Made by a program: the position numbers and the translations under genes. DNA of 64,000 nucleotides from an uncultured Actinomycetes bacterium (GTDB taxonomy: Bacteria > Actinomycetota > Thermoleophilia > Gaiellales > Gaiellaceae). Location: NCBI GenBank assembly GCA_963802685.1, contig CAWDJG010000007.1:562550-626549 (forward strand), read 5' to 3'. The notes under the pieces were generated by a model. The model worked only from the letters and a program-made list of their open reading frames with translations, ran no database searches and was not told the DNA's origin. Positions 6,814-36,090 of this stretch are shown here, one piece after another. Every line of letters begins with the position of its first letter. Positions within the stretch are counted from its first letter, which is position 1.

Positions 6814-6982
6814 GTCGGCCTCCTCGAGGCGCTGGTGGGAGCCGTTCTGTGTGCGGCTCGGGAGACCGGGCGCGCAGGATCCGCGCCGCTCTCACCTGCT
6901 CGCGTGGAACCCCGGCTACGCTACGCGGCCGGTCGGACGTGAGCGGTTACGACTCACTCCTCCTGGGTAGGGAGGAGACGCC

Positions 6983-17140: not shown

Positions 17141-19347
17141 GTGGCCGCAGTCCCGTCCATAGGTCGTGCCGACCGCGCTTCGCGCCCCGCGGCGCCTGAA
17201 GCGGATCTGACGCGCGCGCTCTACGAGAAGTACGCGAACCAGATCTTCCGCTACTGCGTGCACCAGCTCGGCTCGCGTGAGGAGGCCGAGGACGCAGTCC
17301 AGAGCACGTTCCTCAACGCGTTCCGCGGCATCAAGCGCGGCGTCGTCCCCGAGCTCGAGTCCGCGTGGCTCTTCAAGATCGCGGAGAACGTCTGCCTCTC
17401 GCGGCGGCGCTCCTCGTGGCGGCGGGATCGCGTCGAGTCGCCGGCCGACTTCGACGTCGTCGAGGAGGTGACGCCGGCGCCGGGTCGCCTCGCGGACGAG
17501 CTCATCGGCCTGCAGGACGTCCTCGAGCAGATGCCGGAGAGCCAGCGCCGCGCGATCCTCCTCCGCGAATGGCAGGGGCTCTCGTACCGCGAGATCGCCG
17601 ACGAGCTCGAGCTGTCGCAGTCCGCCGTCGAGACGCTCATCTTCCGCGCGCGCCGGTCGCTCGCGCAGGGCCTCGAGCAGCCGCCGGAGCCGGCGGCCAA
17701 GCGGCGGCTCGTGCGCGGCGCCGACTGGGGCAATGTCCTCGCCGGGCTCAAGTCGATGCTCCTCGGCGGTGGCGCCGCGGCAAAGGTCGCCGCCGCGGTG
17801 GCGGTCGTCAGCGCGTCCACCGTCGTCGCGACGGCGCCGGTGCAGCATCACGCGCGGTCGCACCATCCGGCCCCGGCTGCTCCCGCGTCGACGTCGACGA
17901 CGCATGCGGGTGCGGCTCCGGCCGCCGCCACCGGCGGCGGGCACGCGGCGTCGACGCCGGGCGGCACGCATCTCGCGCCGGCGATACACGGGCCGGCGAC
18001 CGCTGTCGTGCCGGGGACCACGCCGGTGGCGACGTTCGATCCGTCACTGCCGGCGGGCGGCTCGCCGGTGTCGTCGCCGGCGGTTGCGCCCGATCAGGCG
18101 ACGACCGACGCGGTCGGAGTGGCTCCGACGATCACGAACGCGCCGGAGACGTCGTCGACTCCCCCCGCCGGCGGCGCGCCGACGGGCGGCAAGTCGCCGG
18201 GCGGCGGCTCGACGTCGGCGCCGCCGGGCGGCTCGACCGGCGGTTCCGGGTCGACGGGGCAGGGCCAGGGCACCGGGCAGGGCAAGGGCACCGGCACCGG
18301 CACCGGCACGGGGCAGGGCACCGGGCAGAGCCAGGGCACGGGTCAAGGGCAGGGCACCGGCACCGGGCAGGGCGCGGGCACGGGGCAGAGCCAGGGCACC
18401 GGGCAGGGGCCAGGGCACGGGCGGGGCAGGGCACCGGGCAGGGCAAGGGCAAGGGGAAGAGCCGCGGGGGCGACCAGGGCCAGGGGCAGGGCAATGGCGG
18501 TGGCAAGGGCCAGAGCGGTCAGGGTCAGGGCGGCGGCGGCAAGGGTCAGAGCGGCGGCAAGGGTCAGACCGGCGGTCAGGGTCAGGGCGGCGGCCAGAGT
18601 CAGAGCGGCGGCCAGGGTCAGACGCAGAGCCAGACGCAGAGTCAGACCCAGACCCAGAATCAGACCCAGACGCAGGGGGAGAGTCAGGGCCAGGGCCAGG
18701 GCCAAGGCCAGGGCCAGGGGCAAGGCCAGTCTCAGGGGCAAGGCCAGGGCCAGGGCGGCCAGGGCAAGGGGAAGGGCGACGGCCACGGCGGCGACCAGGG
18801 CCAGGGCGGCGGCAATCAGGGGCAGGGTGGCGGCAGGGGCCAGTCCGGTGGCCAGGGTCAGGGGCAGGGCAGCAGCTCATCCGGCCAAGGCGATAACGGC
18901 GGTCGGTCCGGTGGCGGCAGCGGCAGCGGGAACGGCGGCGGCCAGCAGGGCCAGGGCGGCTCGGCTCCGCCCGCGCCGCCGGCGCAGCCCGATCCGCCCG
19001 CCGGCTCCGGTGGCAGCTCGGGCTCAGGCAGCCAGGGCGGCTCGGGTGGCCAGACCACCGGCGGCGGTCAGGGCGGAAGCGGCACGCAGGGCGGCGGCGC
19101 CCAGGGCGGCGGCGGCCAGGGTGGGAGCTGGGGTGGCGGCGGAGGCCAGGGCGGCCAGGGCGGCGGTACCCAGGGCAGCGGCGGTCAGGGTGGCAGCGGC
19201 GGCGGCCAGGGTGGCGGTGGCGGCCAGGGTGGCGGTGGCGGCGACCGCGGCGCAGGCGGCCAGGGTGGCGGCGGCCAGGGTGGCGGCGGCGGCGGTCGCG
19301 GCGGTGACCATGGCGGCGGAGGAGCCGGCCATGGCCACGGCCACTAG
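17141..19347 (+). CDS. ECF sigma-70 fused to one membrane span, a P/A/T-rich linker and a ~375-aa Gly/Gln-rich tail; the frame of the G/Q tail changes near 18405-18425
   Basis: Sigma region 2 'EDAVQSTFLNAFRG'. Region 4 'LREWQGLSYREIADELELSQSAVETLIFRARRSL'. TM span 'AAAKVAAAVAVVSASTVVA'. The G/Q tail begins in the frame of ORF 17141 and continues in the frame of ORF 17365, ending 'GHGHGH*' at 19347. Confidence 0.7.
18230..19340 (+). repeat. ~1.1-kb low-complexity triplet-repeat tract (GGC/CAG/ACC/AGC units)
   Basis: Encodes runs such as 'GQGTGQGKGTGTGTGTGQ', 'QTQSQTQSQTQTQNQTQTQ', 'GQGQGQGQGQGQGQSQGQGQGQ'. Long stop-free ORFs occur on both strands. Confidence 0.85.
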
Positions 19348-19365
19348 TTCGGGTAGCGCCGGAGG

Positions 19366-20388
19366 CTAGGCGGCGCTGGCGAGCTCGTCGCCGAGCTCGA
19401 GCTGGAGACGCGAGAGAGCTTCGGTCTCGAGCTGGCGGACCCGCTCGCGGGTCAGACCGAGCTCCTTGCCGATCGTCTCGAGGGAAGCGGACTCGCCGCC
19501 GAAGCCGAAGCGGAGCTCGATGATGCGCCGCTGGCGCTCGGGCAGCTCGGCCACTGCGCGCTGGACGCGCTGGCGGCGGAGCGCCTCCGCGGCCTCTTCG
19601 GCCGGGTCGGCGGACGTCTCGTCGGCGAACAGGTCGCCGAGCTCAGAGTCGCTGTCGGAGCCGAGGCCCTGGTTCAGCGAGACGGAGTCGACGGCGTCGA
19701 GCGCCTCCTCGACGTGCTCCTTCTTGAGGCGCGTGGCCTCGGCGAGCTCGTCGATCGTCGCCTCGCGTCCGAGCTTTGCCTGGAGCTCGGCCGACGCGCG
19801 GTTGAGCTTGATCCGCCGCTCCTGGACGTGGACCGGGATGCGGATCGTCTTCGACTGGTTCGCGACCGCGCGCTGGCAGGCCTGGCGGATCCACCAGGTC
19901 GCGTACGTCGAGAACTTGTAGCCCTTGCGCCAGTCGAACTTCTCCGCGGCGCGGTTCAGGCCGATGACGCCCTCCTGGATCAGGTCGAGCAGCGGGACGT
20001 CGTGGCCCTGGTAGCGCTTCGCGATCGAGACGACGAGGCGGAGGTTCGAGTTGATCATCCGCTCCTTCGCGGCAGGGTCTCCGCGCTCGATCCGCTTCGC
20101 GAGCATGACCTCGTCGGCGGCGGTGAGCAGCTTGTGGCGGCCGGCCGCATCCATGAAGAGCTGGAGCGGGTCGAGCGTGCCCGACGGCGCAGGCGCAGCC
20201 TCGGTCGCCGTAATGGCGGCCCGGACGACGACGTCGCGCTCGTCGAGCGCAGCCTGGAGGGCCGCGATCTCGTCGTCGGCGAGCTCGTGCTCGTCGGCGA
20301 ACGCCTCGAGCTCGCGCTCTTCGACGAAGCCGCGCTCGGCAGCCTCCTCGACGAGGCGCTCGGCAGGCGTCAAATCGTGCAGGTGCAT
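19366..20388 (-). CDS. RpoD-family (group 1/2) sigma-70 factor
   Basis: '[17 protein letters not shown]', '[20 protein letters not shown]', '[14 protein letters not shown]', 'TIRIPVHV', '[18 protein letters not shown]'. 340 aa, with a ~300-nt lower-GC leader. Confidence 0.9.
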
Positions 20389-20680: not shown

Positions 20681-20686
20681 TACAAT
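20681..20686 (+). promoter_or_regulatory. candidate -10 box (TACAAT) for tRNA-Thr
   Basis: TACAAT lies 12 nt upstream of the tRNA 5' end. No convincing -35 element. Confidence 0.3.
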
Positions 20687-20697
20687 CGCTCCCCCAG

Positions 20698-20770
20698 GCC
20701 GACGTAGCTCAGCTGGTAGAGCACATCACTCGTAATGATGGGGTCCACGGTTCGAATCCGCGCGTCGGCT
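20698..20770 (+). tRNA. tRNA-Thr (anticodon CGT)
   Basis: Hand-folded cloverleaf. Acceptor GCCGACG/CGTCGGC, D arm GCTC-AGCTGGTA-GAGC, anticodon arm CATCA-CTCGTAA-TGATG, T loop TTCGAAT. No encoded CCA. One A:C mismatch in the T stem. Confidence 0.9.
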
Positions 20771-20811
20771 TCTCCGATGAACCGATCCGGCCGCCGGGAC
20801 GAACACCGGGC

Positions 20812-21366
20812 GTGAGCCGGCCTCTGGCCCATCTGTCCGACGAGGCGCTCGTCCTCCTCGCCGCGCGCTCCGAGCAGTCGGCGCTCGCGGAGCTGTACGA
20901 CCGCTACGGCCGCACGGCGTACGGGCTCGCGCTGCGCGTCCTCCGCGACGAGGCGCTCGCCGAGGACGCCGTCCAGGAAGGCTTCCTCGCCGTCTGGCGG
21001 ACGGCAGCGCGGTTCGTGCCCGAGCGCGGCAAGGCGAGCACGTGGATCCTCACGCTCGTGCACCGCCGCGCCGTCGACACCGTGCGGCGCGAGCAGCGCC
21101 GCCGCGCCGATACGCTCGAGGGCGCGCCCGAGCCGGCGGTCGGCAGGCCGCGGACGAGCACGCCTGGCTCCGGCTGCAGCGCGAGCGCGTGCAGGACGCG
21201 CTGCGCACGCTGCCCGACGCGCAGCGCGAGGCGCTCGAGCTCGCGTACTACGGCGGCTTCAGCCAGTCGGAGCTCGCCGAGAGGCTCGGCCAGCCGCTCG
21301 GTACGATCAAGAGCCAGGATGTTCGCCGGCCTCGCGCGGATGCGCGAGCTGCTCGGCGAGCCCGGA
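20812..21366 (+). pseudogene. SigK-like ECF sigma factor, two frameshifts (~21135, ~21315), no stop before the anti-sigma gene
   Basis: Region 2 is in ORF 20644 ('[38 protein letters not shown]'). Region 4 is in ORF 21042 ('[35 protein letters not shown]'). The frame then returns to the first one. Confidence 0.75.
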
Positions 21367-22014
21367 ATGGAGATGTCATGGAGCGTGGACCTCCACGAGC
21401 TGACCGCGGCGTACGCGCTCGACGCGCTCGACGCCGACGAGGCGGAGGCGTACGAGGCGCACCTCGCGCAGTGCGAGCGCTGCCGCACGGAGCTCGCCGC
21501 GCTGAGCGAGACGGCGACCGCGCTCGCGTTCGGCGTCGACGCGCCGCCGCCGCCGCGCGCGTCTGCGCGCCGCGATCCTCGACGCCGCCGCCGCCGAGCG
21601 CGCGAACGTCGTCCCGCTGCCGCGGCGGCCGTGGGCGTTCCGCGTCGCCGCGGCCGCGGCGGCAGTCGCAGCATGCGCGGCGCGTCGGCCTCGGCGTCTG
21701 GGGCGCGAATCGCAGCCGGAGCACGCACGCAGGCGCTGAGCGCGGTCGTCGTCGTCGGCGCCGACAGGCACGCGACGCTGACCGTCTCCGGGCTCGCCGC
21801 CGCGCCGCACGGAAAGACGTACGAGGCGTGGATCATCCCGCCCGGCGGTCATGCGCGGCCGGCCGGGCTCTTCGCCGGCGGCGACGGCACGACGGTCGTC
21901 CGTCTGCGTCGGCACGGTGCCGCGCGGCGCCGATCGTCGCCGCGACGGTCGAGCGTGCCGGCGGCGCGAGCGCGCCGACGACGCCGCCGTTCTCTCAGCG
22001 CGAACGACTTGTAA
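21367..22014 (+). pseudogene. RskA-like anti-sigma-K factor, at least four frameshifts
   Basis: '[39 protein letters not shown]' (zf-HC2). The TM span and the C-terminal '[13 protein letters not shown]...[17 protein letters not shown]' are spread over all three forward frames. Confidence 0.7.
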
Positions 22015-22084
22015 GAACTGTCCTCCGAACCGGTCCGGGCGCTCGGGCGAATCAGCGCCGACCCCCGTCCACCAGGAGGAGCAC

Positions 22085-23414
22085 GTGAAGAAGAAGCTCA
22101 TCTTCGCCTTGCTCGCCGCCGCCGCTGTCACGGCCATCGGGTCTCGCCGCCGCCCGCGGCGGCGGCACCGGCGCCGCGACGGCGTCGAGCCACCGCGAGG
22201 CACCGCTGATCTCGCAGGACCCGACGGCGGACAACACGGACCTGTACGCGTTCGTGTCGCCCGACAAGCCGTCGACCGCGACGATCATCTCGAACTGGAT
22301 CCCGGGTGAGGATCCCGCCGCCGGGCCGAACTACTACACGTTCAGCCCGACCGCGCGGTACGACATCTACGCCGACACGAACGGCGACGGCAAGCCGGAC
22401 GTCACCTGGCAGTTCCGGTTCACGAACCAGCCGAGCCAGTTCTTCCTCGGCAACACGCAGCAGAAGTACACGTCACGAAGATCGCCGGCGGCAAGTCGAC
22501 CGTCGTCGGCTCGGGTCTGCTCACGCCGCCCGACAACATCGGGCCGCGGTCGACGCCGAACTACGACGCGCTCGCCGCGAAGGGCATCCACACGCTCGAG
22601 CGACGGCAGCACGGTCTTCGCCGGCCAGCGTGACGATCCGTTCTTCGCCGACGTCGGCGCGATCTTCGACCTCGTCGCGATCCGCGACGGCACGGGTGCG
22701 ACCGGAGGCGGCAAGGACTTCCTCGCCGGCTACGGCGTGCACTCGATCGCCCTGCAGGTGCCGAAGTCGATGCTCGACAACGGCGGCAACCACGTCGTCG
22801 GCATCTGGGCCGCGACCGACCGCCAGAAGGTCACGGTCGCGCACGGCAAGGCGCAGACGAAGTGGGTGCAGGTCAGCCGCCTCGGCAACCCGCTGATCAA
22901 CGAGGTCGATCATCCCGACGAACAAGAAGGACTACTGGAACAGCACGTCGCCCGCGAACGACAAGCAGTTCGCGACAGTACTACACGAGCCCGATCCTCG
23001 CGGCCGTGCTCGCAGAAGCTGTATCCGAAGTTCGGTCCCTTCCAAGCAGATCGGGCCGCAGCGACCTCACGCAGGTCCTGCTCACCGGCATCCCGAAGCT
23101 CAACTAGACCGGCACGACGCTCGCCGACGAGCTCCGGCTCAACCTGTCGATCGCGCCGACCGCGGCCGACAAGGTCAACCGGCTCGGCGTCATCGGCGGC
23201 GACAACGCCGGCTATCCGAACGGCCGCCGGCTCGGTGACGACGTCATCGACATCGACGAGCGCGTCGTCGCCGGCGAGCTGATCGGTCACGCGCTGCCGC
23301 TCGGCGACGGCGTCGACGCGAACGACGTGCCGTACCTCGCGTCGTTCCCGTACGTCGCTCCGCCGTTCAGCGGCTTCGACGACACGCACGGCCAGCTCAC
23401 AAGAAGACGGGTTC
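22085..23414 (+). pseudogene. DUF4331 family secreted protein, at least seven frame changes plus an in-frame TAG (23105-23107)
   Basis: GTG at 22085 after AGGAGGAG. Segments: 'SSHREAPLISQDPTADNTDLYAFVSPD', 'AGQRDDPFFADVGAIFDL', 'LGNPLINEV', 'NRLGVIGGDNAGYPNGRRLGDDVIDI', 'DANDVPYLASFPYVAPP'. These segments lie in alternating frames. The 3' end is undefined. Confidence 0.8.
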
Positions 23415-24743
23415 GTGCAAGGCTCGTCTCTTCGTCGCAGGGACGGCGGCGGCATTTGCCGCCGCCGTCCTCGCCCTCGGCGGGCGTCCTCCGGCACGCA
23501 CCGGCGGCTGCCGCGACCGACGCGCTGCCGACCGCGATCGCGGCCGAGCTGCAGAAGGGCTTCGCAGCCGGCGACACGCAGGCGGAGATCGCCGGGCTCC
23601 AGGCCGAGCTGCGCGCTCGACCGCACGCAACGTGAAGGCGCTCGACACGCTCGGGCTCGCCTACCTCCAGCGCGTGCGCGAGACCGGCGACCCGACGTAC
23701 TACGGCAAGGCCGACGGCATCCTGCACGAGGCGCTCCGCTCCACTCCGAACGATCTCGATCGCGACCGCGCGGGCTCGGCCAGCTCGCGCTCTCGCGCCA
23801 CCGCTTCCGCACTCGCGCTCGCACTCGGCGCTGCGCGCGAAGCGGATCTCGCCGACGACCGCCGGCGTCTACGGCGTCGTCGGCGACGCGGAGCTCGAGC
23901 TCGGCCGCTACCCGCAGGCGTTCGCCGCCTTCGACCGCATGAACGCGATCAAGCCCGACGTCGCGTCGTACGCGCGCGTGTCGTATGCGCGCGAGCTGCA
24001 TCGGCCACACCGCCGACGCCGAGCGCGCGATGGCGCTCGCGGCGTCCGCCGCGGTCGGCGAGCACGAGGCGTCGTCGTGGACGCGCGTGCAGCTCGGCCT
24101 CCTCGAGCTCAACTCCGGCCATGCGCGCGCCGCGCTCGTGCAGATGCGGCACGCGCTCCAGCTCTTCCCGGACTACTACTTCGCGCTCGACGGCATGGCC
24201 CAGGTGCAGGCCGGCCTCGGCCACCTGCGCACGGCGCGCATCTACGAGCAGGCTGCCGTCGACCGCGTGCCGCTGCCGCAGTACGTCGGCTTCCTCGGCG
24301 ACCTCGACCGCGTCGCTCGGCGCCCCGCGCGCGGCGAAGCGCGAGTACGCGCTCATCGGCGTCATCCAGAAGCTGCTCGCGGCGAACGGCGTACGGAACG
24401 ACCTCGACATCGCGCTGTTCGACGTCGACCACGGCGTCGACCTGCCGCACGCGCTCGTGCTCGCGCGCAAGGGATACGCCGAGCGGCCGAGCATCGTCGG
24501 CGACGACGTCCTCGGCTGGGCGCTCGCCCGCAACGGCGAGTGCCGCGAGGCGCTGCGCTACTCGGAGCGCTCGCTCCGTCTCGGCACGCAGGACCCGGTG
24601 AAGCTCTTCCACCGCGGCTGGATCGCCGCCTGTCTCGGAGACCGCGCAACGGCTCGGGGCTTCTACCGCCGCGCGCTCGCACTCAACCCGCAACTTCTCG
24701 CGTCCTGTGGGCGCCCGCCGCCCGGAAGGGAGCCGGCTCGTGA
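23415..24743 (+). pseudogene. TPR-repeat protein with N-terminal TM/signal segment, about seven frame changes
   Basis: Segments 'ARLFVAGTAAAFAAAVLALGG', 'ALDTLGLAYLQRVRETGDPTYYGKADGILHEAL', 'GVVGDAELELGRYPQAFAAFDRM', 'DYYFALDGMAQVQAGLG', 'DDVLGWALARNGECREAL' lie in different frames. The end '...LWAPAARKGAGS*' overlaps the next GTG. Confidence 0.65.
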
Positions 24744-26060
24744 AACGTCTCGCTCGTCCTGCTCGCACTCGCGTTCGCGCTCGCTCGCGCCGGTCGCCGC
24801 GCAGGCGCACCCGCTCGGCAACTTCACGATCAACCGCTTCGCGCGCGTCGAGGTCGCCGGCCACCGGCTGTACGTGCGCTACGTCCTCGACATGGCGGAG
24901 ATCCCGACGTACCAGGCGCGCCAGCAGGGCGTCGACGCCGAACGCGTACGCGCGGCGCCTCGCCGCACGGGCTGCACGTGACGCTCGCCGGCCGCACCGT
25001 GCGGCTCGTCCCGGTCGCGCACGCGCTCGCGTTCCCGATCGGCGTCGGCGGGCTGCACACGATGCGGCTCGAGCTCGATCCTCCGCGGCCCCGCGGTGTC
25101 GGGCACCGAGCGGCTCACCGTGTCCGACACGAACTACGCGGACCGCATCGGGTGGAAGGAGATCGTCGTCGGCGCCGCCACGCACAGCACCTCCGACGAG
25201 CTGCGCGCGTATCCGAAGAGCCTGCTCCAGAGCCCGCTCGACGTCACGACGGCGTCGGCGACCGTCGCGCCGACGCAGCGACGCCGTGCCGGTGCTCCTG
25301 CGCGGCACCGCGCTGCAGGCGCCGGACCGCGTCGCCGACTCGGGCTTCACGCGGCTCATCGCGCGCGGGCACCTCAGCGCGCTCGTCATCCTCGCGTCGC
25401 TCGCGGCCGCGCTCTTCTGGGGCGCCGCGCACGCGCTCTCGCCCGGCCACGGCAAGACGATCGTCGCCGCGTACCTCGTCGGCAAGCAGCGGCACGCGCG
25501 CGCGACGCCGCCGCGCTCGGTGCGATCGTGACGGTGACGCACACGATCGGCGTGTTCGCGCTCGGCGCTCGTGACGCTCGCGCTCTCGCAGTGGATCGTC
25601 CCCGACACGCTCTATCCGTGGATCAACCTCACGGCCGGGCTCCTCGTCGTCTCGATCGGGATCACCGTGCTCCGCGCGCGCTACCGGCACGCGCACCACC
25701 ACCACCATCACCACGATCACGATCACGACCACCATCACCACCACGAACCGTCGCGGCGCAGCCTGCTCGCGGTCGGCGTCTCCGGCGGGCTCCTGCCGTG
25801 CCCGTCCGCGCTCGTCGTCCTGCTCGCGGCGATCTCGCTCCACCGCGTCGCGTTCGGGCTCGCTCCTCATCGTCGCGTTCTCGGTCGGGCTCGCGCTCTC
25901 GATCACCGGGCTCGGCCTCGCCGCCGTGCTCGCGAAGCGCGCGTTCGCGCACCGCAGCTTCGACGGTCTCCTCGTCCGCGCGCTTCCCGCCGTCTCCGCC
26001 GCCGTCATCCTCGCCGCCGGCGTCGCGATGACGGTGCGCGCGATCCCGAGGGTGCACTGA
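24740..26060 (+). pseudogene. NicO/RcnA-like nickel/cobalt transporter with N-terminal extracytoplasmic domain and His-rich loop, about nine frame changes
   Basis: GTG after GGAAGGGAG. Segments: 'AHPLGNFTINRFARVEV', 'AHALSPGHGKTIVAAYLVG', 'HAHHHHHHHDHDHDHHHHH', 'GGLLPCPSALVVLLAA'. The pieces are scattered over ORFs 23632, 24707, 24978, 25096 and 25571. Confidence 0.75.
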
Positions 26061-27047
26061 TGGACTGGCGCCGGCTCTCGTGCTTCGGCGGCGCGGTCGC
26101 GCTCCTCCACGTCGCCGGCTGGGGGCTGCTCCTCGTACTACGCGAGCAGCAGCCCGGCGCTGATCGGCCTCGGGACGCTCGCGTACACGTTCGGCCTGCG
26201 GCACGCGTTCGACGCCGACCACATCGCCGCGATCGACAACACGACGCGGAAGTTCCTCCAGGACGGCAAGCGCCCGCTCGGCGTCGGCTTCTTCTTCTCG
26301 CTCGGACACTCGAGCGTCGTGCTCGGGCTCGCAGCCGGGCATCGGCGTCGCCGCGACGACCGTGAAGGACCGGCTCCCGTCGTTCGAGCACTGGGGCGGC
26401 CCGGTCGGCACTCGGCGTCTCCGGCGCGTTCCTGCTCGCCATCGGCGTCCTCAACCTGCTCGTGCTCGTCGACGTCGTCCGGATCTTCCGCGACATGCGC
26501 GGCGGCTCGCTCGACGAGGAGCGGCTCGAAGCGAGGCTCCTCGACCGCGGCCTCATGAGCCGCGGCGTCCTCAAGCGGCTCGGCGACCGGATCCACTCGA
26601 GCTGGCAGATGTACCCGCTCGGCGTCCTCTTCGGCCTCGGCTTCGATACGGCCACCGAAGTCGGCCTGCTCGCCCTCTCCGCCGGCGCCGCCGGCCGGCA
26701 CATGCCGTTCGCGGCCGTGCTCTCGCTGCCGCTCCTCTTCGCCGCCGGGATGTCCCTGCTCGACACGGCGGACGGGGCATTCATGAGCCACGCCTACAGC
26801 TGGGCGTTCTCGAGCCCGGTGCGGAAGGTCTACTACAACATCACCGTCACGGCCCTCTCGGTGACGGTCGCGCTCGGCATCGGCGGCGCTCGAGCTCCTC
26901 CAGCTCGTCGTCCGGGCCGCCTGGCTCGACGTGGGCACGCTCGGGTACGGAATCGCCGGGCTCTTCCTCCTCACGTGGGCCGTCTCCGCGGTCGTCTGGA
27001 GGACGAGTCGCATCGAGGAGCGCTGGGCCGTCCGCGTGCGCGGCTGA
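26060..27047 (+). pseudogene. HoxN/HupN/NixA family Ni/Co transporter, four frame changes
   Basis: The ATG overlaps the previous stop (TGATG). '[17 protein letters not shown]', '[11 protein letters not shown]', 'LGFDTATEV', 'LLDTADG'. The pieces lie in ORFs 25571, 26319, 26362, 26462 and a fifth frame ending in TGA at 27047. Confidence 0.8.
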
Positions 27048-27053
27048 TCCGCG

Positions 27054-27830
27054 TCAGAACAGGTGCGGGCCGACGCCGCCGACGAGATAGCCGACCCCGG
27101 CGGAGAGGGCACCGACGACGAGCACCTGGAGGCCGCTCCGCACGAGGGCGAGCCGGGCGACCCGGCCCTTCAGCACCCCGAGCCCGAAGAGCGCGCAGCC
27201 GGTCGCGGCGAGCGAGAGCACGAGCGCGAGGTGCATGCTGAAGAAGAAGTACGGCCACAGCGGGACGAGGGCGGCGGCCGCGTAGGAGGCGCCGACGACG
27301 TACCCGTCGACCTTCGCCGTCTCGGTGTCGTGGAACGGCAGGCCGAGCTCCTTCTCGATCTTCGTCTTCACGAGCGACTCCACCGAGCGTCCGATCGCGA
27401 GGCTGGCGGTCTGGGCGTCGGCGGCCGACAGCCCCTCCTCCTCCAGGAGAACCTGGAGCTCGAGCCGCTCGAGGTCGGGGTGGTCGAGCGCCTCGGCGCG
27501 CTGGTCTGCGATCTCGCTTGCGATCAGTGCGTTCTCGGCGTGGCTCGACAGGTACGCGCCCGTCCCCATCGCGAGTGCGCCCGCGGCCGCCTCCGCCACC
27601 CCGCCGACGATGACCGCCGTCGCGCCGACGGTCGCGCCGGCCAGCCCGGTGACCACGCCGAGCGGCACGAGCAGCCCGTCCTGGAAGCCGAGCACGAGCT
27701 CGCGGATGCGCATCGACCGCGACAGCCGCGCCCGCTCGGAGAGCGTGTGATCGCGCAGCGCCGACTCGTCCCGCGGATGCCCGGCGGCATCGCGTCCAGC
27801 CGGAAGCAGGGCGGCACTCCGTCCACGCAC
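27054..27830 (-). CDS. VIT1/CCC1 family iron/manganese transporter
   Basis: 'IRELVLGFQDGLLVPLGVVTG', 'ALAMGTGAYLSS', C-terminal TM bundle. Intact, GTG start. Confidence 0.85.
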   Translation of the reverse strand: MRGRSAALLPAGRDAAGHPRDESALRDHTLSERARLSRSMRIRELVLGFQDGLLVPLGVVTGLAGATVGATAVIVGGVAEAAAGALAMGTGAYLSSHAENALIASEIADQRAEALDHPDLERLELQVLLEEEGLSAADAQTASLAIGRSVESLVKTKIEKELGLPFHDTETAKVDGYVVGASYAAAALVPLWPYFFFSMHLALVLSLAATGCALFGLGVLKGRVARLALVRSGLQVLVVGALSAGVGYLVGGVGPHLF

Positions 27831-27968
27831 CCCCCGAGCATTCTCGCCCGGCGGCAGAGGGGCATCAGCGGCCCGACCGATCCCGGATCAGGACAAAGCC
27901 ACACGATCGAGATTCTTTGGTTCTTCTCAGCATCGGCGCATCCGAATAGGAGAGAATCGCGGAGAACG

Positions 27969-29552
27969 ATGTTCCGGCGGCCCTGCGTACTCCTCCTCTC
28001 GATCCTCGTGCTCGTCGCGCTCGTCGTCGCGGTCCCGGCCGGGGCGAAGACGGTGCCCGGGTCGCCGCCGTTCCGCGTCGTCATCCTCGACCACATCACG
28101 GGTTGGCAGCTGCGCGACTTCGCGCGGCACGGCGCCGTCGGTCTGCTCGTCCCCGGCGCCGGCCCGTCGACGAACCGCCGCCAGGCGCTCGCACAGCTCG
28201 TGCGCGGACGGCAGATGAACGCGCACCTGGGCGGCGTACCGGAAGGCCCGCGGCTGCTGTCGACGACCGCGGCGACGGGAACGCCGAGTCGCGCGCGGAC
28301 GATCGTCGTCACGCTCCCGCCGAAGGGCGCGCCGATCGCGAACGACCACCGCTACTACGTCGCCGTCCTCGGCGGCGGCTTCCACGGGCTGCTCGTCTCG
28401 AAGACGACGAAGATCCCCGGGCTCGTCTCGGTCGTCGACATCGCACCGACGGCGCTCGGTCACCTACGTGGTTCGCTCACGTCGACGCCGTCGGCGCACG
28501 CGATCGGGACATTGCGCAACCTCAACGCGCAGATCCACGCGAACAACCGGCTGAAGCTCGCCGCACTCATCGTCATCGCGTGCTTCGCGCTCTTCCTCGC
28601 GGTCGTGCGTCCGCGCTCGGCGTTGACGATCGTTCCGGCCGCGCTGTTCACGAACGTCGTGCTCGGCGTGACCCACGTGACGAACGAGGTCACGATCATG
28701 GCGGCGATCGTCGTCGGGTCGGTCGCCGGCGGTCTCCTCCTCGAACGGCTGTGCCGGTCGGACTGGCATCTGCTCGGCCTCTTCCTCGTCGTCCTGTTCG
28801 GGCACGCGTATCTGCTCGTGCGTCATCCCGACTGGCTCGCGGTGACGCCGCTCGGGCCGACGCAGAACTCGCGCTTCTGGGGCATCGGCAACCAGCTCGA
28901 GACGCTGTTGCTCGCGCCGATCCTCGCCGGCGCCGCGATCGCCGCGCGCCGTCTCGGCGTGCTCGGGTTCACGCTGTTCGGCGTGCTCGGTCTCGTGCTC
29001 ATGACCGACAACCGGCTCGGCTCCGACGGCGGAGGCGCGATCGTGCTCGGCGTCGCGCTCGCATATCTCGGTGCGCGCACGTTCCGCTTCGGCGCGCGGG
29101 GCTTCGCGATCCTGCTCGCCGCGTCCGCTGCGCTCGTGCTCAAGATCGTGTCCTCGAACCTCGCCTCTGCGGGGCCGAACCATCTGCGCAGCGCATTCGG
29201 GCACGGACTGTGGGGCATCTGGGCTGTCATGCGCAACCGCGTGCCACTGTCGTACGTCCCCGCGCTCGAGAACTGGACCGTCGTCATGCCGCTCGCGGTC
29301 TGGTTCGTCGTGTCGTTCGCGGTCGCGATCTACGTCGCGCGGCGGCGACCGGCGCGCGACCTCGTCCTCACGCTCGGCGTCGCGACCGTCACGTCGCTCC
29401 TCGTCAACGACTCCGCGATGTACGTCCTCACCGGCGGAGTCGCGGTGGTCGGCTCGATCTTCCGCTTCGCGCCGGCGCCCGCGGTGCCGTTCTCGCTCCG
29501 CTCGCTCGTGGGGGTGCGGACGCCGGTCCCGGTTCGCAGCGAAGCCGAGTAG
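27969..29552 (+). CDS. hypothetical polytopic membrane protein (527 aa) with N-terminal extracytoplasmic domain
   Basis: The ATG at 27969 lies after GGAGAGAATCGCGGAG, within ORF 27063-29552. Signal-like 'MFRRPCVLLLSILVLVALVVAVPAGA', a ~170-aa soluble part, then about 10 hydrophobic spans. No family recognised. Confidence 0.65.
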   Translation: MFRRPCVLLLSILVLVALVVAVPAGAKTVPGSPPFRVVILDHITGWQLRDFARHGAVGLLVPGAGPSTNRRQALAQLVRGRQMNAHLGGVPEGPRLLSTTAATGTPSRARTIVVTLPPKGAPIANDHRYYVAVLGGGFHGLLVSKTTKIPGLVSVVDIAPTALGHLRGSLTSTPSAHAIGTLRNLNAQIHANNRLKLAALIVIACFALFLAVVRPRSALTIVPAALFTNVVLGVTHVTNEVTIMAAIVVGSVAGGLLLERLCRSDWHLLGLFLVVLFGHAYLLVRHPDWLAVTPLGPTQNSRFWGIGNQLETLLLAPILAGAAIAARRLGVLGFTLFGVLGLVLMTDNRLGSDGGGAIVLGVALAYLGARTFRFGARGFAILLAASAALVLKIVSSNLASAGPNHLRSAFGHGLWGIWAVMRNRVPLSYVPALENWTVVMPLAVWFVVSFAVAIYVARRRPARDLVLTLGVATVTSLLVNDSAMYVLTGGVAVVGSIFRFAPAPAVPFSLRSLVGVRTPVPVRSEAE

Positions 29553-29553
29553 C

Positions 29554-30108
29554 TCAGCTCGCGCGCTGTGCGCGCCGCTGCGCGAGCTCGCCGTTCGCCG
29601 TCGCCGCCTCGGCGGTGAGCGCCGCGTCGAGGTCGGCTGCGACCGGCAGCACCGTCGTCACCGGCGTCGCGCAAAACGGGCATGCCTGCCAGAGCGGGTC
29701 GAGCGGCGCTTCGCAGCGCTGGCACGGCTCGCGGAGGCGCGTCGTGCAGACCGGGCATACGAGATAGCCGGCCTCCACGTCGCTCATGCACACCGGGCAG
29801 TGCGGCTCCGGGCGGCCCAGCCGGTCGCGAAGCGCGCGTACCTCGATCTCCCGCGCACGCGCATCCGCGAGCGTCTCCGGCGGCCGGAAGAGCATGTAGA
29901 CGACCGGGCCGACGTACGGAAGGCCGAAGCCGAGCGCGCCCGAGAGGCCGACGAGCAGGCCGTCGTCGATCCGCCGGCGGGCGTCGCGGAGCACCCGGAA
30001 CCCGAGCCCGAGCCAGAGTACGGCTGCGAAGAGCGCAAGGACGGTGCCGGTGGCCGCGAAGGCGGAGGAGTGGAGCGCGCTGTGGATCGAGCCGAACGCG
30101 GATGCCAT
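29554..30108 (-). CDS. membrane protein with C-terminal double zinc-ribbon
   Basis: Two N-terminal TM spans, then 'HCPVCMSDVEAGYLVCPVCTTRLREPCQRCEAPLDPLWQACPFC'. Confidence 0.7.
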   Translation of the reverse strand: MASAFGSIHSALHSSAFAATGTVLALFAAVLWLGLGFRVLRDARRRIDDGLLVGLSGALGFGLPYVGPVVYMLFRPPETLADARAREIEVRALRDRLGRPEPHCPVCMSDVEAGYLVCPVCTTRLREPCQRCEAPLDPLWQACPFCATPVTTVLPVAADLDAALTAEAATANGELAQRRAQRAS

Positions 30109-30144
30109 GCGCGCACGGTCTTGCCCGAACCGGCGGCGCGGAAA

Positions 30145-30314
30145 CTAGAGGGTTGATGTGAAAGTCGGCCGCCGTCGGGGGCGCTCCAGGCCAAGCGGGG
30201 CAGTGCGGGCGGTCGCGGCGCGTAGCAGAGCTACGCGTCGTGGCCGAACGTGCTGATCCCGCGCAGCGCCTGGGGCGTCATCCGGCCCGGCCGAGTTTCA
30301 CATCAAGCCTCTAG
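30145..30314. mobile_element. 170-bp fold-back element with 19-bp terminal inverted repeats (MITE-like or structured intergenic repeat)
   Basis: CTAGAGGGTTGATGTGAAA (30145-30163) against TTTCACATCAAGCCTCTAG (30296-30314) matches 18/19. There is an imperfect internal palindrome and a central stem CGCGTAGC-aga-GCTACGCG. The ends are AT-rich relative to the surroundings, and CTAG lies at both tips. Confidence 0.4.
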
Positions 30315-30667
30315 CCGGGGGCGATCTGCTGGAGCCGCTCGGCGAGCTCGCGCACGGCGCCGGGGCGCTCGACGCCGGCGATCCGGAGCTTGCGGCCGTC
30401 GTGCAGCTCGACCACGAGGGTCGTGCGGTCGCCGATCCGCATGGCGGCCGTGCGGCCGATGTACGCGCTCGCGATCTCGGTCAGGTCGAACAGGCGGTCG
30501 TAGGCCGCGTCGCGGGAGCCGCCGCTGAGGTGGAGGGACGACGCCGACAGGTCGAGCCGGCCCGGCCGCGCCGCGTCGTCCTGCTCCGACCACATGACCG
30601 GCAGTGAGAGGTCCCAGCCCATCGGGCCAGTGTTCTGGCCGGTCCCGGGCGATCTAACCGCAAACAC
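30311..30667 (-). CDS. hypothetical protein (118 aa)
   Basis: ORF with coding-like composition. The start is uncertain (GTG 30667 or ATG 30622). No family recognised. Confidence 0.45.
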   Translation of the reverse strand: MFAVRSPGTGQNTGPMGWDLSLPVMWSEQDDAARPGRLDLSASSLHLSGGSRDAAYDRLFDLTEIASAYIGRTAAMRIGDRTTLVVELHDGRKLRIAGVERPGAVRELAERLQQIAPG

Positions 30668-30697
30668 CCCTACGCCAAGTGCGGGAAACTACGGGTA

Positions 30698-31156
30698 GTG
30701 GAAGCCGCGCTCCGTGTCCTGCACGTTCTCGCCGCGGCCGTCTGGGTCGGCGGGACGGTCGCGCTCGTCTTCGTCGCCGTGCCGCCGGTGCAGCGGCTCG
30801 AGGGCGAGATCCGCGCGCGCCTCCTCCGCGACTTCGGCCGGCGGTGGCGGCCGATCGGCTGGAGCGCCCTCGGCGTCGCCGCCCTCACCGGCCTCGGGCT
30901 CGCCGCGTACGACCACGCCTTCGACACGGCACCCGCGTCGTTCGACTGGGTGCTCGCCGTGAAGGGCGTGCTCGTCGGCCTGCTCGCCGCCGGCGCCTAC
31001 GTCCACGACTACGTGCTCGGCCCGGGTCTCGCGCGGCAGATCCGCGAGGGCCGGCCGCAGTCGCTCAGGCCGCTGCTGACGCACATCGGCCGCGCGAATC
31101 TCGCGATCACGTGCGCGCTCCCGGTGCTGGGCGTCGTTCTCTCCGAGCTCGGGTAG
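30698..31156 (+). CDS. CopD-like / DUF4149-like four-TM membrane protein
   Basis: 'LRVLHVLAAAVWVGGTVALVFVAVP'. Four hydrophobic spans, 152 aa. Confidence 0.55.
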   Translation: MEAALRVLHVLAAAVWVGGTVALVFVAVPPVQRLEGEIRARLLRDFGRRWRPIGWSALGVAALTGLGLAAYDHAFDTAPASFDWVLAVKGVLVGLLAAGAYVHDYVLGPGLARQIREGRPQSLRPLLTHIGRANLAITCALPVLGVVLSELG

Positions 31157-31193
31157 CCGTTTCGCGCGCACGCGCGCGCGCAAGAACGAGTTC

Positions 31194-33224
31194 GTGCCGA
31201 ACCGGAGCCGTGTCGAGCAGGACCTCGCGGTGCTGCTCCTCGTCCGCCGGTCGCGGCTGCGCCGCGCGCGCCGCCGGCCCATCGCCGTCGGGCTCGTGGC
31301 GGCCGCGCTCGTCGTCGTCGCGCTCGTCGCCGGTGCCGCCGTCGGCGGGCGCTCCCTGCTCGTCGGATCGTGCACCCTGAACGCCCTGCAGCCGGTCGCG
31401 CTCGGGCAGAACTCCTTCCTGTACGCGAAGAACGGCACGCTTCTCGGCGTCGTGCCGTCGAGCGCGCACCGGCAGCCGCTGCGGCTCGACCAGATGTCGT
31501 CGTACCTGCCGCAGGCGACGGTTGCGATCGAAGACCGCCGGTTCTGGCAGCACGGCGCGCTCGACTACCAAGGCATCGTGCGTGCGCTCTACTCGGACGT
31601 GACCGCGGGCAAGATCGTCGAGGGCGGCTCGACGATCACGCAGGAGCTCGCCCGCAACCTCTATCTCGGCGACTCGCAGCGCACGCTCTCGCGCAAGGTG
31701 AAGGAGGCCTGCCTCGCGCTCAAGCTCGCGCAGAGCTGGCCGAAGAAGCGCATCCTCACGGCGTACCTCAACGAGGTGTTCTACGGCCGGGCGGCGCACG
31801 GCGCGCAGGCCGGCGCGGAGACGTTCTTCTCGCGTCGCGCTCGCGACCTCACGCTCGCGCAGGCGGCGCTCCTCGCGGGGCTGCCGCAGGCGCCGACCGT
31901 CTACGACCCGTTCCTCCATCCCGCGATCGCGCTTCGCCGGCGCGACGACGTGCTGCGCGCGATGCTCGCGAATCGCGTGATCACGACGCAGGAGTACGCG
32001 AGCGCACTGTCGGCGCCGCTAGGCCTGAAGCCGGGGACGCTCTACACCGCGCACCGACAGCCGAACTTCTCCGGCTGGGCCGAGCAGCAGCTCGTCGCGC
32101 GCTTCGGCGCGCGTCGTGTCGCCGCGGGCGGGCTCGCGGTGCGGACGACGCTCGACCCGGGGATGGAGGGCCAGGCGAGGGCCGCGGTGCAGAGCGTGCT
32201 GCAGCGTCCATCCGATCCGGCGGCGGCTCTCGTCGCCATCGACCCGCGCACGGGCGCGGTCCGCGCGATGGTCAGCTACCTGCCCGACGGGCGCAAGCTG
32301 ACGTTCAACCTCGCGACGCAGAGCACGCGCACGGCCGGAAGCTCGTTCAAGCCGTTCGTCCTCGCGACCGCGATCCTGCACGGCATCTCGCTCTACTCGA
32401 GCTTCTCGGGCCCGCCGTCGCTCGTCATCCCCGACCACCGCTGCGACGGTCCGCAAGGCCCGTGGGACGTGCACAACTACGCGGACGAGAACGGCGGCTA
32501 CATGAACCTGCTGAATGCGACCGCGAACTCGGTGAACACGATCTTCGCGCAGCTCGTCGCGCGCGTCGGCCCGGCGAGCGTCGTGCCGGTCGCGCACCGC
32601 ATGGGCATCACGACGAAGCTGCAGCCGGTCTGCTCGATCACGCTCGGCACGCAGCCCGTCAACCCGCTCGAGATGACCGACGCGTACGCGACGCTCGCCG
32701 CGCACGGGTTGCACCACGATCCGCAGCCGTTCGAGCTCGTCCGCGCGCCGAGCGGGCAGGTGCTCGGCCGGCTGGGCGCGTCCGGCGACCAGGCGCTCCC
32801 GCGCGGCGTCGCCGACCAGGTCACGTACGCGCTCGAGGGCGTCGTGCAGCACGGCACGGGCGTCGCTGCGAACTTCGGCCGGCCCGCCGCGGGGAAGACG
32901 GGCACGGCCGAGTCATTCCAGGACGCGTGGTTCTGCGGGTACGTGCCGCAGCTCGCGACGTGTGTGTGGGTCGGCTACCCGAAGGCGGAGATCCCGCTCT
33001 ACGGCGTCGAAGGCGTCGGCGCCGTCGCGGGCGGCACGCTGCCGGCGGAGATCTGGCACCGCTTCATGGCCGCGGCGACGGCGAGCATGCCTGTCCTCTC
33101 GTTCCCCACACCGACGATCACCGGCTCGACCGTCTACGGCTCCGGGTACTACACCCCGACGACGACACCGTCGGTCATCGACGTGTCCCCGACTCCGGTC
33201 CGGCCGGCGCCCGGCGGGCATTGA
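31194..33224 (+). CDS. class A penicillin-binding protein (glycosyltransferase + transpeptidase)
   Basis: 'AIEDRRFWQHGALDYQGI', 'GGSTITQELARN', 'RKVKEA', 'SSFKPF', 'KTGT'. N-terminal TM span. Confidence 0.9.
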   Translation: MPNRSRVEQDLAVLLLVRRSRLRRARRRPIAVGLVAAALVVVALVAGAAVGGRSLLVGSCTLNALQPVALGQNSFLYAKNGTLLGVVPSSAHRQPLRLDQMSSYLPQATVAIEDRRFWQHGALDYQGIVRALYSDVTAGKIVEGGSTITQELARNLYLGDSQRTLSRKVKEACLALKLAQSWPKKRILTAYLNEVFYGRAAHGAQAGAETFFSRRARDLTLAQAALLAGLPQAPTVYDPFLHPAIALRRRDDVLRAMLANRVITTQEYASALSAPLGLKPGTLYTAHRQPNFSGWAEQQLVARFGARRVAAGGLAVRTTLDPGMEGQARAAVQSVLQRPSDPAAALVAIDPRTGAVRAMVSYLPDGRKLTFNLATQSTRTAGSSFKPFVLATAILHGISLYSSFSGPPSLVIPDHRCDGPQGPWDVHNYADENGGYMNLLNATANSVNTIFAQLVARVGPASVVPVAHRMGITTKLQPVCSITLGTQPVNPLEMTDAYATLAAHGLHHDPQPFELVRAPSGQVLGRLGASGDQALPRGVADQVTYALEGVVQHGTGVAANFGRPAAGKTGTAESFQDAWFCGYVPQLATCVWVGYPKAEIPLYGVEGVGAVAGGTLPAEIWHRFMAAATASMPVLSFPTPTITGSTVYGSGYYTPTTTPSVIDVSPTPVRPAPGGH

Positions 33225-34670
33225 CGCCGAGGGCTCTCGGACACGTAGACGACCGGCTCGGCGACGCGATCGAACGGGTCGTGCGCAATCACCATCGCCG
33301 GCGTCTGGCGCGCATCGGGCAGGAGTGCGCCTTCTCACGCGAGCCGGGTGGCTGGGCGGACAGCGGCGCGTTCCGGCCCCGCGAGGGCGTTGCCGTGGAG
33401 CTGCTCGTCGACGGCGCGGAAGCGCTGCCGCGCATCGCGTCGGAGATCGAGTCGGCGCGCTCGCACGTGCACATCGCCGGCTGGACGTTCACGCCGGGTC
33501 TGCAGCTCGGCGACGGCGGCCGGATTCTCGGCGAGCTGCTCGCCGACAGCCGCCGGGCGCGTGCCGGTCCGCGTGCTCGCGTGGGCCGGTGCGCCCATCG
33601 CGCTCTTCCATCCCGACCGCGGCGAGGTGCGCCGGATGCGCGCCGAGCTCGTCGCCGGCTCCCGCATCGAGGCTCGGCTCGACGCGAAGGAGCGGCCGAT
33701 GCACTGCCACCACGAGAAGCTCGTGATCGTCGACGACCGCGTCGCCTTCGTCGGCGGCATCGACCTCACGTCGTTCGCCGGCCAGCGACTCGACCACAGC
33801 CATCACCGCCCGCGCGGGAGCATGGGCTGGCATGACGCCTGCGTGCGGCTCGAGGGCCCGATCGTCTCCGATGTCGCCGAGCACTTCCGGCTGCGCTGGC
33901 GCGAGACGGGCGGCGCGGCGGACGGCACGCCGCACGGTGGCGCGTCCCGTGGCTCCGGCGTCGAGGCGCAGCTCGTGCGCACCGTGCCCGAGCACATCTA
34001 CGACGGCTTGCCGAAGGGCGAGTTCACGATCCTCGAGAGCTATCTGCGCGCGCTGCGCGAGGCGGAGCGGCTCGTGTACCTCGAAAGCCAGTTCCTCTGG
34101 TCGAGCGAGGTCGTGTCGATCCTCGCGGAGAAGCTTCGCCGGCCCCCGACGGACGCGTTCCGTCTCGTCGTCCTCCTGCCGGTGCGCCCGAACAACGGCG
34201 CCGACGACACGCGGGGCCAGCTCGGCGTGCTCGTCGAGGCGGACAAGGAGAGCGGCGACCCGACGTCGCGCTTCCTCGCGTGCACGCTCTACCAACCCGG
34301 CCGCGGCGGCCTGCCCGTGTACGTCCACGCGAAGATCGGCATCGTCGACGACCGCTGGCTCACGATCGGGTCGGCGAACCTCAACGAGCACTCGTTCTTC
34401 AACGACACCGAGGTGAACGTCGTCGTGCGCGACGAGAAGCTCGCGCGCGCGGCGCGGCTACGGCTCTGGTCGGAGCACCTCGAGCGCGACGACGTCGGCG
34501 GAGATCCGACGCAGCTCGTCGACGAGGTGTGGCGGCCGCTCGCGGAGGAGCAGCTCGAGCGAAGACGGAAGGACAAGTGGGCGCCGCACCGGTTAACGCT
34601 GCTCCCCAACGTGTCGCGTCGCTCGAAAGCAATTTGGGGGCCGTTGAACGGTTTGGTCGTAGATGGCTAG
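33221..34670 (+). pseudogene. phospholipase D / cardiolipin-synthase-like protein (two HKD motifs), one frameshift (~33549)
   Basis: The N-terminus is in the frame of ORF 31370 ('VELLVDGAEALPRIASEIESARSHVHIAGWTF'). The rest is in ORF 33348 ('HCHHEKLVIVDDRVAFVGGIDL', 'VHAKIGIVDDRWLTIGSANLN'). A possible TTG start overlaps the PBP stop. Confidence 0.75.
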
Positions 34671-34693
34671 AAGACAACGACGACCCGGGCCGA

Positions 34694-34872
34694 CGCTAAC
34701 GCGAAGCGTTAGTGGCGGCCGCACGAGCGCGCGGGGATGGCGGTAGCCACCACCGCGCGCGCAGAACTAGACCCGCGCCGACACCCATAAGAGGTCGGCG
34801 GCTTGGCCGCCGACCGCTCCGCGAAGCGGTAACTCAACTCATTTCAGATGGCCCAAAGGCCATCTGAAATGA
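34694..34872. repeat. cluster of five stem-loops between convergent genes (candidate bidirectional terminators or REP-like elements)
   Basis: CTAACGC-gaa-GCGTTAG (34696-34712). GCGCGCGG...CCGCGCGC (34727-34760). GGTCGGCGGC-ttg-GCCGCCGACC (34793-34815). ACCGCT...AGCGGT (34813-34830). TCATTTCAGATGGCC-caaa-GGCCATCTGAAATGA (34839-34872). Confidence 0.5.
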
Positions 34873-36090
34873 CAGGGATGCGCTTGCCCTTCGCGTTCAC
34901 GCCGGTCGCTTCGAAGTCCGGGCTGCCGATCATGACGTCGAGGTGCACCGGTGACTGGTTGAGGCCGCGCGCGGGCTTGATCGTGCGCGTGCCGCCGAAG
35001 CCGGAGCCGAACGCGATGTGCGCGGCGGCGTTCTCGTCGAGGAGCGTGTCGTAAGTACATGCGGCCGCTCTGCCCGATGCGCGACGTCGAGTCGACGAGC
35101 GCCACTTCGCCGAGCCGGCGCCCGTTCCCCTTCGGGTCGCTGTCGATGTACCCGGCGACGAAGTCGCGGTCGGATTTCGTCTTCGCATCGAGGCGCACGA
35201 GCTTCCCGCCGCGGAACTCGCCTTTCAGCCCCTCGACGAGCCGTCCCTGGAACGATGAGCGGGAACGTGCACGTGAACGTGCCCTCGGTGCCGGTCGCGT
35301 CCGGGCTCGTGAACGTCTCCTCGGTCGGCATGTTCGCGGCGATGAGCGAGCCGTGGAGCGTCTTCTCGCTTCCGCCGAGCCACGCGGTCCCCGGGACGAG
35401 CTTCACGTCGAGCGCGGTGCCCGGCCCGCGCAGCTCGACACGGGTGAGCCCGAGGGTCGTGAGCTTCTTCGCGCGCCGTGCGAGCGCGGTGCCGTGCGCG
35501 AGCCAGCCGCTCACGCCCGGCCCGTCCTCGTCGGTGAGGCGCGAGAACCACATCAGATCCTGCGCGAGCTTGCGCTTCGCCTTCAGGATCGACATCCGCG
35601 GGTAGACCTGGCCGGCCCAGTAGTCGGTCGGCCAGCCGGCGATCGTCCAGCGCACGCGCATGTCGAGGCTCGCACGCCGGAACGCGCGCAGCTGCCGTCC
35701 CGCCCGCGCGTACTCGGTCATGATCCGCTTCTGCGGGATGCCGTCGAGGAAGCCCGGTTCGCTCTCGCCGCTGATGAAGATCTCCGCCGCGTCCGGCTTC
35801 ATGAGCTCGCGGTAGCGCCGCTGCGTCCATGGCGTGATGACGCCGAGCGCGTCATCGCGCCCATGCCGGAGCCGCGCGCGCATGACCAGCGGGTCGATCG
35901 TGACGACGTCCACCGCGTGCGCGCCGCCGCGGTACGCGGACTCGGCGACGGCGACCATGACCTCGCGGTGCGCGTGCGCGCCGCGGACGACGATCGTGTC
36001 GCCGCGCTTCAGCGCGATCGACTTCGTGATCGCGTCGGCGTACCGCTCGAGCTGGGCCGGCTCGAGAATCGCGTCCTTCGCCACGCTCAC
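34844..36090 (-). pseudogene. M29 family aminopeptidase (AmpS/PepS-like), two frameshifts (~35253, ~35054)
   Basis: The GTG at 36090 overlaps the STAS stop (GTGA). 'AILEPAQLERYADAITK' is in ORF 34930-36312. 'FQGRLVEGLKGEFRGGKLVRLDAK...' is in ORF 34839-35198. 'YDTLLDENAAAHIAFG...VHLDVMIG' is in ORF 34844-35188. Confidence 0.8.

Follow-up and report, generated by a model that had tools for sequence, protein, structure and literature searches.

Frame breaks in a conserved six-gene metal module of an uncultured Gaiellaceae bacterium most likely reflect a consensus of two merged templates

Broken reading frames in a deposited bacterial genome can be compared with three kinds of described system. 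In pseudogene clusters, such as those of Mycobacterium leprae, adjacent frames are disrupted while gene order is kept, and an established deletion bias acts on bacterial pseudogenes. In long-read (Nanopore/PacBio) consensus sequences, as revealed by truncated-gene tests of the IDEEL type, conserved intact genes are split by single-base indels, classically located in homopolymers and including deletions. Finally, strains or repeats may collapse into one consensus, the problem addressed by Strainberry and Strainy. Here we analysed a stretch of 64,000 nucleotides (hereafter the window) from contig CAWDJG010000007.1 of an uncultured Gaiellaceae bacterium, in which six consecutive genes, coding for an extracytoplasmic function (ECF) sigma factor, an anti-sigma factor, a DUF4331 protein, a tetratricopeptide repeat (TPR) protein and two NicO-type membrane proteins, are interrupted by frame breaks. 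The presence of these breaks in the deposited sequence was confirmed, but the organism itself most likely does not have them. With a probability of roughly 85%, as suggested by the pattern of the inserted bases, they represent a consensus or polishing artefact generated from two merged, diverged templates in a long-read metagenome-assembled genome (MAG).

With pseudogene clusters the locus shares the adjacent disrupted frames and the preserved gene order, but it shows no deletion bias, no excess of substitutions and no truncations, and a nonsense codon occurs only once. As in long-read consensus frameshifts, single-base indels interrupt genes that are conserved and otherwise intact, with isolated events dispersed along a very long MAG contig (PMC9262707). 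The difference lies in the rarity of homopolymer events, in the marked excess of insertions and in a density roughly 40-fold higher within one 6.2 kb block. There is also a likeness with a collapsed strain or repeat consensus, given a conserved operon shared among co-occurring Gaiellaceae, present in two copies in some genomes, and inserted bases and a TAG codon that mix the alleles of relatives; here, however, the serial writing of alleles is deduced from the sequence and not documented from an assembler.

The operon and its immediate neighbours are organized as follows, the Pfam and NCBIfam scores of the six operon proteins having been taken on frame-corrected sequences.

19366–20388, minus strand: rpoD-family (group 1/2) sigma factor, open and intact, left neighbour (list of open reading frames (ORFs); Pfam Sigma70_r1_2, r2, r3 and r4)
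20697–20772, plus strand: tRNA-Thr (CGT), found by ARAGORN, at the left edge of the error-dense block
20812–21400 (end approximate), plus strand: SigK-like ECF sigma factor (Sigma70_r2 and Sigma70_r4_2 in the corrected protein)
21377–22014, plus strand: RskA-type anti-sigma factor (N-terminal zf-HC2 domain and RskA_C)
22085–23420 (end approximate), plus strand: secreted DUF4331 protein (Pfam DUF4331, PF14224)
23420–24743, plus strand: TPR protein with an N-terminal membrane anchor (TPR_2 and other Pfam TPR families)
24740–26060, plus strand: NicO/RcnA-like membrane protein, HPLGNF domain at the N-terminus, His-rich loop (Pfam NicO 31 bits, DsbD_2 42 bits)
26060–27047, plus strand: HoxN/HupN/NixA-family Ni/Co permease (Pfam NicO 294 bits; TIGR00802)
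27056–27830, minus strand: VIT1-family gene, open and intact (Pfam VIT1 163 bits), at the right edge of the error-dense block

At the base composition of the window (~72% G+C) open frames are long in every frame and little informative, and third-position G+C (GC3) was therefore used for frame tracking. By GC3 frame plot and a 7-state frame hidden Markov model (HMM), the plus strand between 20833 and 27055 was resolved into ~25 short segments of 40–630 nt, alternating between the three forward frames; outside this interval the HMM returned mostly gene-sized segments of ~1 kb. Three-frame translation showed the same, with the recognisable blocks of the six co-directional genes hopping between forward frames over 20.8–27.05 kb. 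Counting of tblastn high-scoring segment pairs was dropped as a measure of frameshifts, since such pairs cross short out-of-frame stretches in high-GC DNA. When eight guessed fragment ORFs of the broken block were searched for in the protein collection, no exact match was retrieved, although their starts may have been guessed wrongly.

The events were then counted against relatives. In a three-way alignment of the window with the syntenic relative loci L001 and L002, 41 window-specific insertions of a length not divisible by three were found, as against 3 such deletions (a ratio of ~14:1); 33–35 of the insertions consist of a single base and the others of 2, 2, 4, 5, 5 and 7 nt. In a panel of 14 sequences, comprising the window and 13 close relatives, strictly private events of this type in 20686–27060 amounted to 37 insertions and 2 deletions, while each of the 13 relatives had 0–3. 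These strictly private insertions are distributed as 2 in the sigma gene, 5 in the anti-sigma gene, 5 in DUF4331, 10 in TPR, 10 in the NicO-like gene, 4 in hoxN and 1 in an intergenic position. Adding the events seen in the three-way alignment only, the six genes have roughly 2, 6–7, 8, 11–12, 10 and 4, so that an initial annotation made from the sequence, which had counted 2, 4–5, 7, 7, 9 and 4 frame changes, slightly underestimated them; that all six frames are broken, as it had stated, is borne out by frame plot, HMM, three-frame translation and alignments alike. The dense block extends with sharp edges from directly after tRNA-Thr, where the three-way alignment places a private 6-nt insertion, to the end of the hoxN gene. 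Its density is ~one insertion per 150 bp over ~6.2 kb, versus a contig background of ~one +1 event per 6 kb. Neither truncations nor large deletions occur in it, and there is a single nonsense codon.

In the ECF sigma gene the alignments place the breaks near 21147 (+2) and at 21314 (+1). The anti-sigma gene has private insertions of 7 nt at 21379, of 1 nt at 21556, 21682, 21909, 21933 and 21994 and of 4 nt at 21717, besides an in-frame insertion of 3 nt at 21882. The 7-nt insertion, TGGAGCG (21377–21392), lies at the sigma/anti-sigma overlap, is a near-repeat of the TGGACCT that follows it, and brings the anti-sigma reading frame into phase with the sigma frame. In the DUF4331 gene, +1 insertions were found at 22142, ~22600, 22907, ~22976 and 23013 and a +2 insertion at ~23045, together with –1 deletions at 22471 and 23401 and the nonsense codon TAG at 23105–23107. 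The ~11–12 private insertions of the TPR gene map to 23419, 23482, 23617/23623, 23757, 23770, 23813, 23830, 23998, 24313 and 24692/24701. All ten private insertions of the NicO-like gene are +1 (24753, 24784, 24937, 24967, 25076, 25278, 25488, 25498, 25566 and 25863), as are the four of hoxN (26135, ~26340, 26412 and 26889). Gene order and the overlapping junctions had been described as preserved and were indeed present: in GTGA (24740–24743) the TGA stop of the TPR gene overlaps the GTG of the NicO-like gene, and in TGATG (26058–26062) the ATG of hoxN overlaps the NicO-like stop.

Of the 33 private insertions of a single base, 30 add a base that occurs as an allele of relatives in the immediately adjacent column, whereas 9.7 ± 2.6 of 33 (~30%) are expected when placement on the fixed alignment is random. 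Likewise, a polymorphic column borders 30 of the 33 insertions (21.9 under the null). Homopolymer slippage dominates both real +1 mutations and ordinary long-read errors; extension of a homopolymer, that is, repetition of a neighbouring base, accounted for only 3 of the 33, compared with 18 ± 2.9 (~50%) under the fixed-alignment null. As gap placement could bias the allele match, a realignment control was run, in which 33 random bases were put into the corrected sequence and the whole panel was realigned, in seven runs. In these simulations 6–11 of the 22–31 recovered insertions matched the adjacent allele and 6–19 fell in the homopolymer class; the observed pattern is far outside both nulls. 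The TAG nonsense codon is of the same kind: at 23105–23107 the relatives show exactly two alleles, TAC and GAG, and TAG reads as a chimera between them, composed of the first two bases of the former and the last base of the latter. The adjacent polymorphic site is at codon position 3 in 15 cases, at position 1 in 13 and at position 2 in 1, a distribution compatible with insertion between codons, although we do not lean on this count given the ambiguity of gap placement.

These figures bear directly on ordinary random read noise at very low coverage, as where the sequence stems from one long read or from a bridge across a gap. An indel density of ~0.7% is comparable to that of one modern long read, and the sharp edges of the block and the isolated +1 errors elsewhere in the contig would agree with such an origin. 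Noise, however, would be expected to extend homopolymers in about half of the cases, to produce deletions as well, and to match the adjacent allele in ~30%, instead of the 91% observed, and the indels of Nanopore consensus sequences have been described as associated with homopolymers (PMC9262707). We consider this explanation highly improbable.

A motif shared by the 33 sites was searched for and none was found (1.22 bits over 13 positions; null mean 0.89, 95th percentile 1.28); the first impression of a CTCG/GATC context around the inserted bases was not upheld by this formal test. The result is relevant for recoding, according to which the extra bases would be real, with programmed +1 ribosomal frameshifting or RNA editing serving to bypass them. 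The unidirectional, +1 nature of the frame changes would be in line with it, but besides the absence of a motif, no site is conserved in the 13 close relatives or in the wider locus set, and we know of no bacterial system of such density. The probability of recoding is next to negligible.

When the private insertions were deleted, all six proteins were restored end to end, with one internal stop left. The amino acid identity of the restored proteins to those of L002 is, in gene order, 93, 83, 86, 70, 84 and 85%. The ratio of non-synonymous to synonymous substitution rates (dN/dS) between the window and its relatives ranges from 0.08 to 0.36, with a single TPR comparison at 0.62, and that between L001 and L002 from 0.07 to 0.44. 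Private non-synonymous changes at otherwise invariant codons were 14 of 2023 (0.69%), the intact relatives having 0.07–2.4%. Relaxed selection, for which a test had been proposed, was thus looked for by dN/dS and by changes at invariant codons, and no excess over the intact relatives was found; the genes show the substitution pattern of purifying selection.

The idea that the module is a recently and heavily decayed island, one of the two options of the initial annotation, does not hold well against these data. A genuine recent pseudogenisation, with ~40 real small insertions, would account for the presence of the breaks in the deposited sequence and for their clustering within a single functional unit, and for the nonsense codon; moreover, the VIT1 gene next to the operon, absent in the relatives, indicates that local genome change has occurred. 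On the other hand, a pseudogene old enough for ~40 indels is expected to carry a large neutral substitution load, with hundreds of substitutions normally accompanying so many indels, as well as deletions and several nonsense codons. Here neither dN/dS nor the changes at invariant sites exceed those of intact relatives, the 41 insertions against 3 deletions run opposite to the deletion bias of pseudogenes and so speak against real decay, and junctions and ribosome-binding sites are kept in a block free of truncations. Slippage, the usual source of real +1 mutations, is scarcely represented among insertions that mostly match an adjacent alternative allele, and +1-only breaks are also found in unrelated genes across the window. 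Pseudogenisation is accordingly rated as highly improbable. The other option, a locally low-quality and indel-rich assembly, is the one favoured by the insertion bias and the two-template signature.

Comparison with related genomes, also suggested at the outset, showed the six genes open in nearly all loci. A scan of species-representative genomes with a DUF4331 query assembled from the frame pieces returned 80 loci, all from Gaiellaceae or Thermoleophilia MAGs (best amino acid identity 90%), and a metagenome scan returned 80 further loci (best 91–92% to DUF4331). Among the near-full-length matches in the fetched loci, open frames were found, in gene order, in 86/88, 28/28, 148/158, 96/96, 78/79 and 19/19 cases, and the few stops fall at match ends. 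The synteny of locus L002 with the window covers 11.3–35.0 kb of the latter, and each of the six genes of L002 forms a single open frame. The corrected TPR protein has 3,981 homologues at E ≤ 1e-50 among 5.8 billion proteins, the best being 87% identical; the best 120 of these 3,981 are 424–441 amino acids long, except one of 514. The six-gene module is widespread and conserved in Gaiellales, uncharacterised, and not new here. A second, diverged DUF4331 gene was observed directly downstream of the first in L015, L017, L021, L022, L109 and ~20 other loci; these downstream copies are ~40–68% identical to the query and hence paralogues. Two separate copies of the operon are located on different contigs in the MAG SMAG_U9998 (L070 and L071), and no second copy of the operon was found within the window.

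In the mixed-template explanation, the six genes would be an intact, conserved operon of soil Gaiellaceae, and over the ~6.2 kb block the reads or graph paths of two diverged templates would have been merged. The second template may be a co-occurring related population that shares the operon or a paralogous operon copy. Wherever the templates differ, the consensus would write both alleles in series, adding one base and a +1 frame shift at each site; both this step and the identity of the second template we infer from the sequence. A conserved operon segment would recruit or collapse reads from either of these sources during assembly or polishing, and more diverged flanks would not. The window sits on a 702,815-bp contig, a size typical of soil MAGs built from long reads, and hence probably belongs to a long-read MAG. 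Many of the related loci are from Microflora Danica (MFD) Nanopore MAGs of Thermoleophilia; MFD MAGs were assembled with metaFlye and polished by one Medaka round, without short reads, and high microdiversity in soils is reported by the MFD authors (PMC12313526).

The relationships of the operon and of its flank would be compatible with this. In the flank (27950–34700) the window behaves as an outgroup, with 0.78 identity to L001 and L002 versus 0.84 between them. In the operon (20686–27060) the three sequences are equidistant at ~0.85 (0.85–0.86 from the window to its relatives), and at 23.1–24.7 kb L001 is more similar to the window than to L002. Such a difference fits either exchange of the operon among Gaiellaceae or a mixed consensus: the operon is either unusually conserved or exchanged within the family, and cross-recruitment is most plausible in this block. 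Its right end coincides with a structural difference, namely the VIT1 gene, which L001 and L002 do not have at this position. A blastn synteny break shows that ~900 bp at 27027–27950, including VIT1, are absent at that position in both loci, and ~600 bp at 30103–30690 are likewise absent from them.

Several points weigh against the merging of two templates. The second template is deduced from the consensus sequence and not observed, and the sequencing platform from contig size and data source only. No single relative consistently carries all the "second" alleles, which would have designated a donor lineage. Neither a sequence of the same species nor an independent intact same-species copy was found in the species-representative genomes, the metagenome contigs and the search of 5.8 billion proteins. 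The operon looks intact in other long-read loci from MFD, and the artefact is thus not universal for such data. To our knowledge, the exact error mode of both alleles written in series has no published description, and its link to consensus algorithms is drawn from general knowledge. The same allele pattern could conceivably have been written by the cell itself, if an insertion-biased process had placed both parental alleles in real DNA and killed the metal-uptake operon in one burst, a candidate for such a process being faulty heteroduplex processing after recombination between two diverged operon copies. We regard this as a very remote prospect; if true, the insertion of both alleles would be a new mutational mechanism in bacteria.

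The merged-template explanation of the frame breaks also draws on ~10 further frame changes outside the block, all of the same direction (+1) by three-frame translation, that split other genes across the window.

Break at ~2633, plus strand: methyltransferase (Methyltransf_16 in two frames, model positions 44–100 and 118–146)
5468–6849, minus strand: xanthine/uracil permease, shifts at ~6408, 6095 and 5927 (Xan_ur_permease in four frames, 3–103, 103–219, 224–280 and 281–387)
Break at 13581, plus strand: membrane/TPR protein
Break at 33547, plus strand: PLD-like protein
34876–36096, minus strand: M29 aminopeptidase, shifts at ~35251 and 35052 (Peptidase_M29 in three frames, 4–269, 271–330 and 332–406)
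Break at ~53513, minus strand: cupin
Break at ~58620, minus strand: second RskA-like anti-sigma factor

In the Xan_ur_permease, Peptidase_M29 and Methyltransf_16 genes the Pfam models continue across the frame pieces. In the right flank, a 6.7 kb control, one private coding insertion of a length not divisible by three was found (33547), and one in the left flank (13581); the remaining flank differences are intergenic or within a low-complexity repeat protein. The flanks had been called intact, which is correct for the rpoD-family and VIT1 genes, both open, but not for the genes farther away that are broken by +1 changes. ARAGORN also reported, inside the PLD-like coding region, a 92-nt tRNA-Val (CAC) at 33299–33390, which is probably a false positive. 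The region 17900–19350 is a low-complexity, Gly/Gln-rich repetitive coding region with strong G and A skew, much longer than in relatives, and many of the large "insertions" relative to L002 fall within it. The second RskA-like gene is part of a second ECF sigma/RskA_C-like anti-sigma pair (58281–59552, minus strand), the sigma factor of which shares 45% identity with the orthologue of the focal sigma in L002.

The identities of the six operon genes, already recognised segment by segment in the initial annotation, were supported by Pfam and NCBIfam once the proteins had been corrected. The first two genes recall the actinobacterial SigK/RskA pair. The sigma factor has Sigma70_r2 and r4 regions and its best-scoring NCBIfam family is SigK (NF007228), at 179 bits and under the 226-bit cut-off, while it passes the generic ECF model TIGR02937 (97.6 versus 42.9 bits); on these scores it is SigK-like and not a demonstrated SigK. 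Its partner combines zf-HC2 (26.2 bits, threshold 22.2) with RskA_C (49.2 bits, threshold 29.4) and scores 131.8 bits with the equivalog NF052375 (cut-off 100). The DUF4331 protein covers model positions 1–421 of 421 with 435.5 bits (threshold 27). With regard to the HoxN/NixA (NiCoT) permeases and the RcnA/NicO transporters, the sixth protein exceeds the TIGR00802 cut-off (340.7 versus 333.05 bits, model positions 2–251 of 281), whereas the fifth, with its His-rich loop, is NicO/RcnA-like and reaches 101 bits, under the 195-bit cut-off, with the nickel/cobalt efflux transporter model NF007454. No mention of DUF4331 was found in the literature searched. A reasonable reading of the operon is that of an envelope module under ECF sigma control, directed at Ni/Co or a related metal, in which the metal specificity is suggested by the neighbouring transporters, DUF4331 and its TPR partner having no assigned function.

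Breaks that are private, outside homopolymers and insertion-only, and that carry an adjacent alternative allele, would point to mixed-template error and not to decay. This allele test needs no reads and may help in the pseudogene screening of long-read MAGs. In the present case, six intact genes should be annotated for the operon and not pseudogenes, since its description as a decayed island would misrepresent the metal physiology of this Gaiellaceae lineage.

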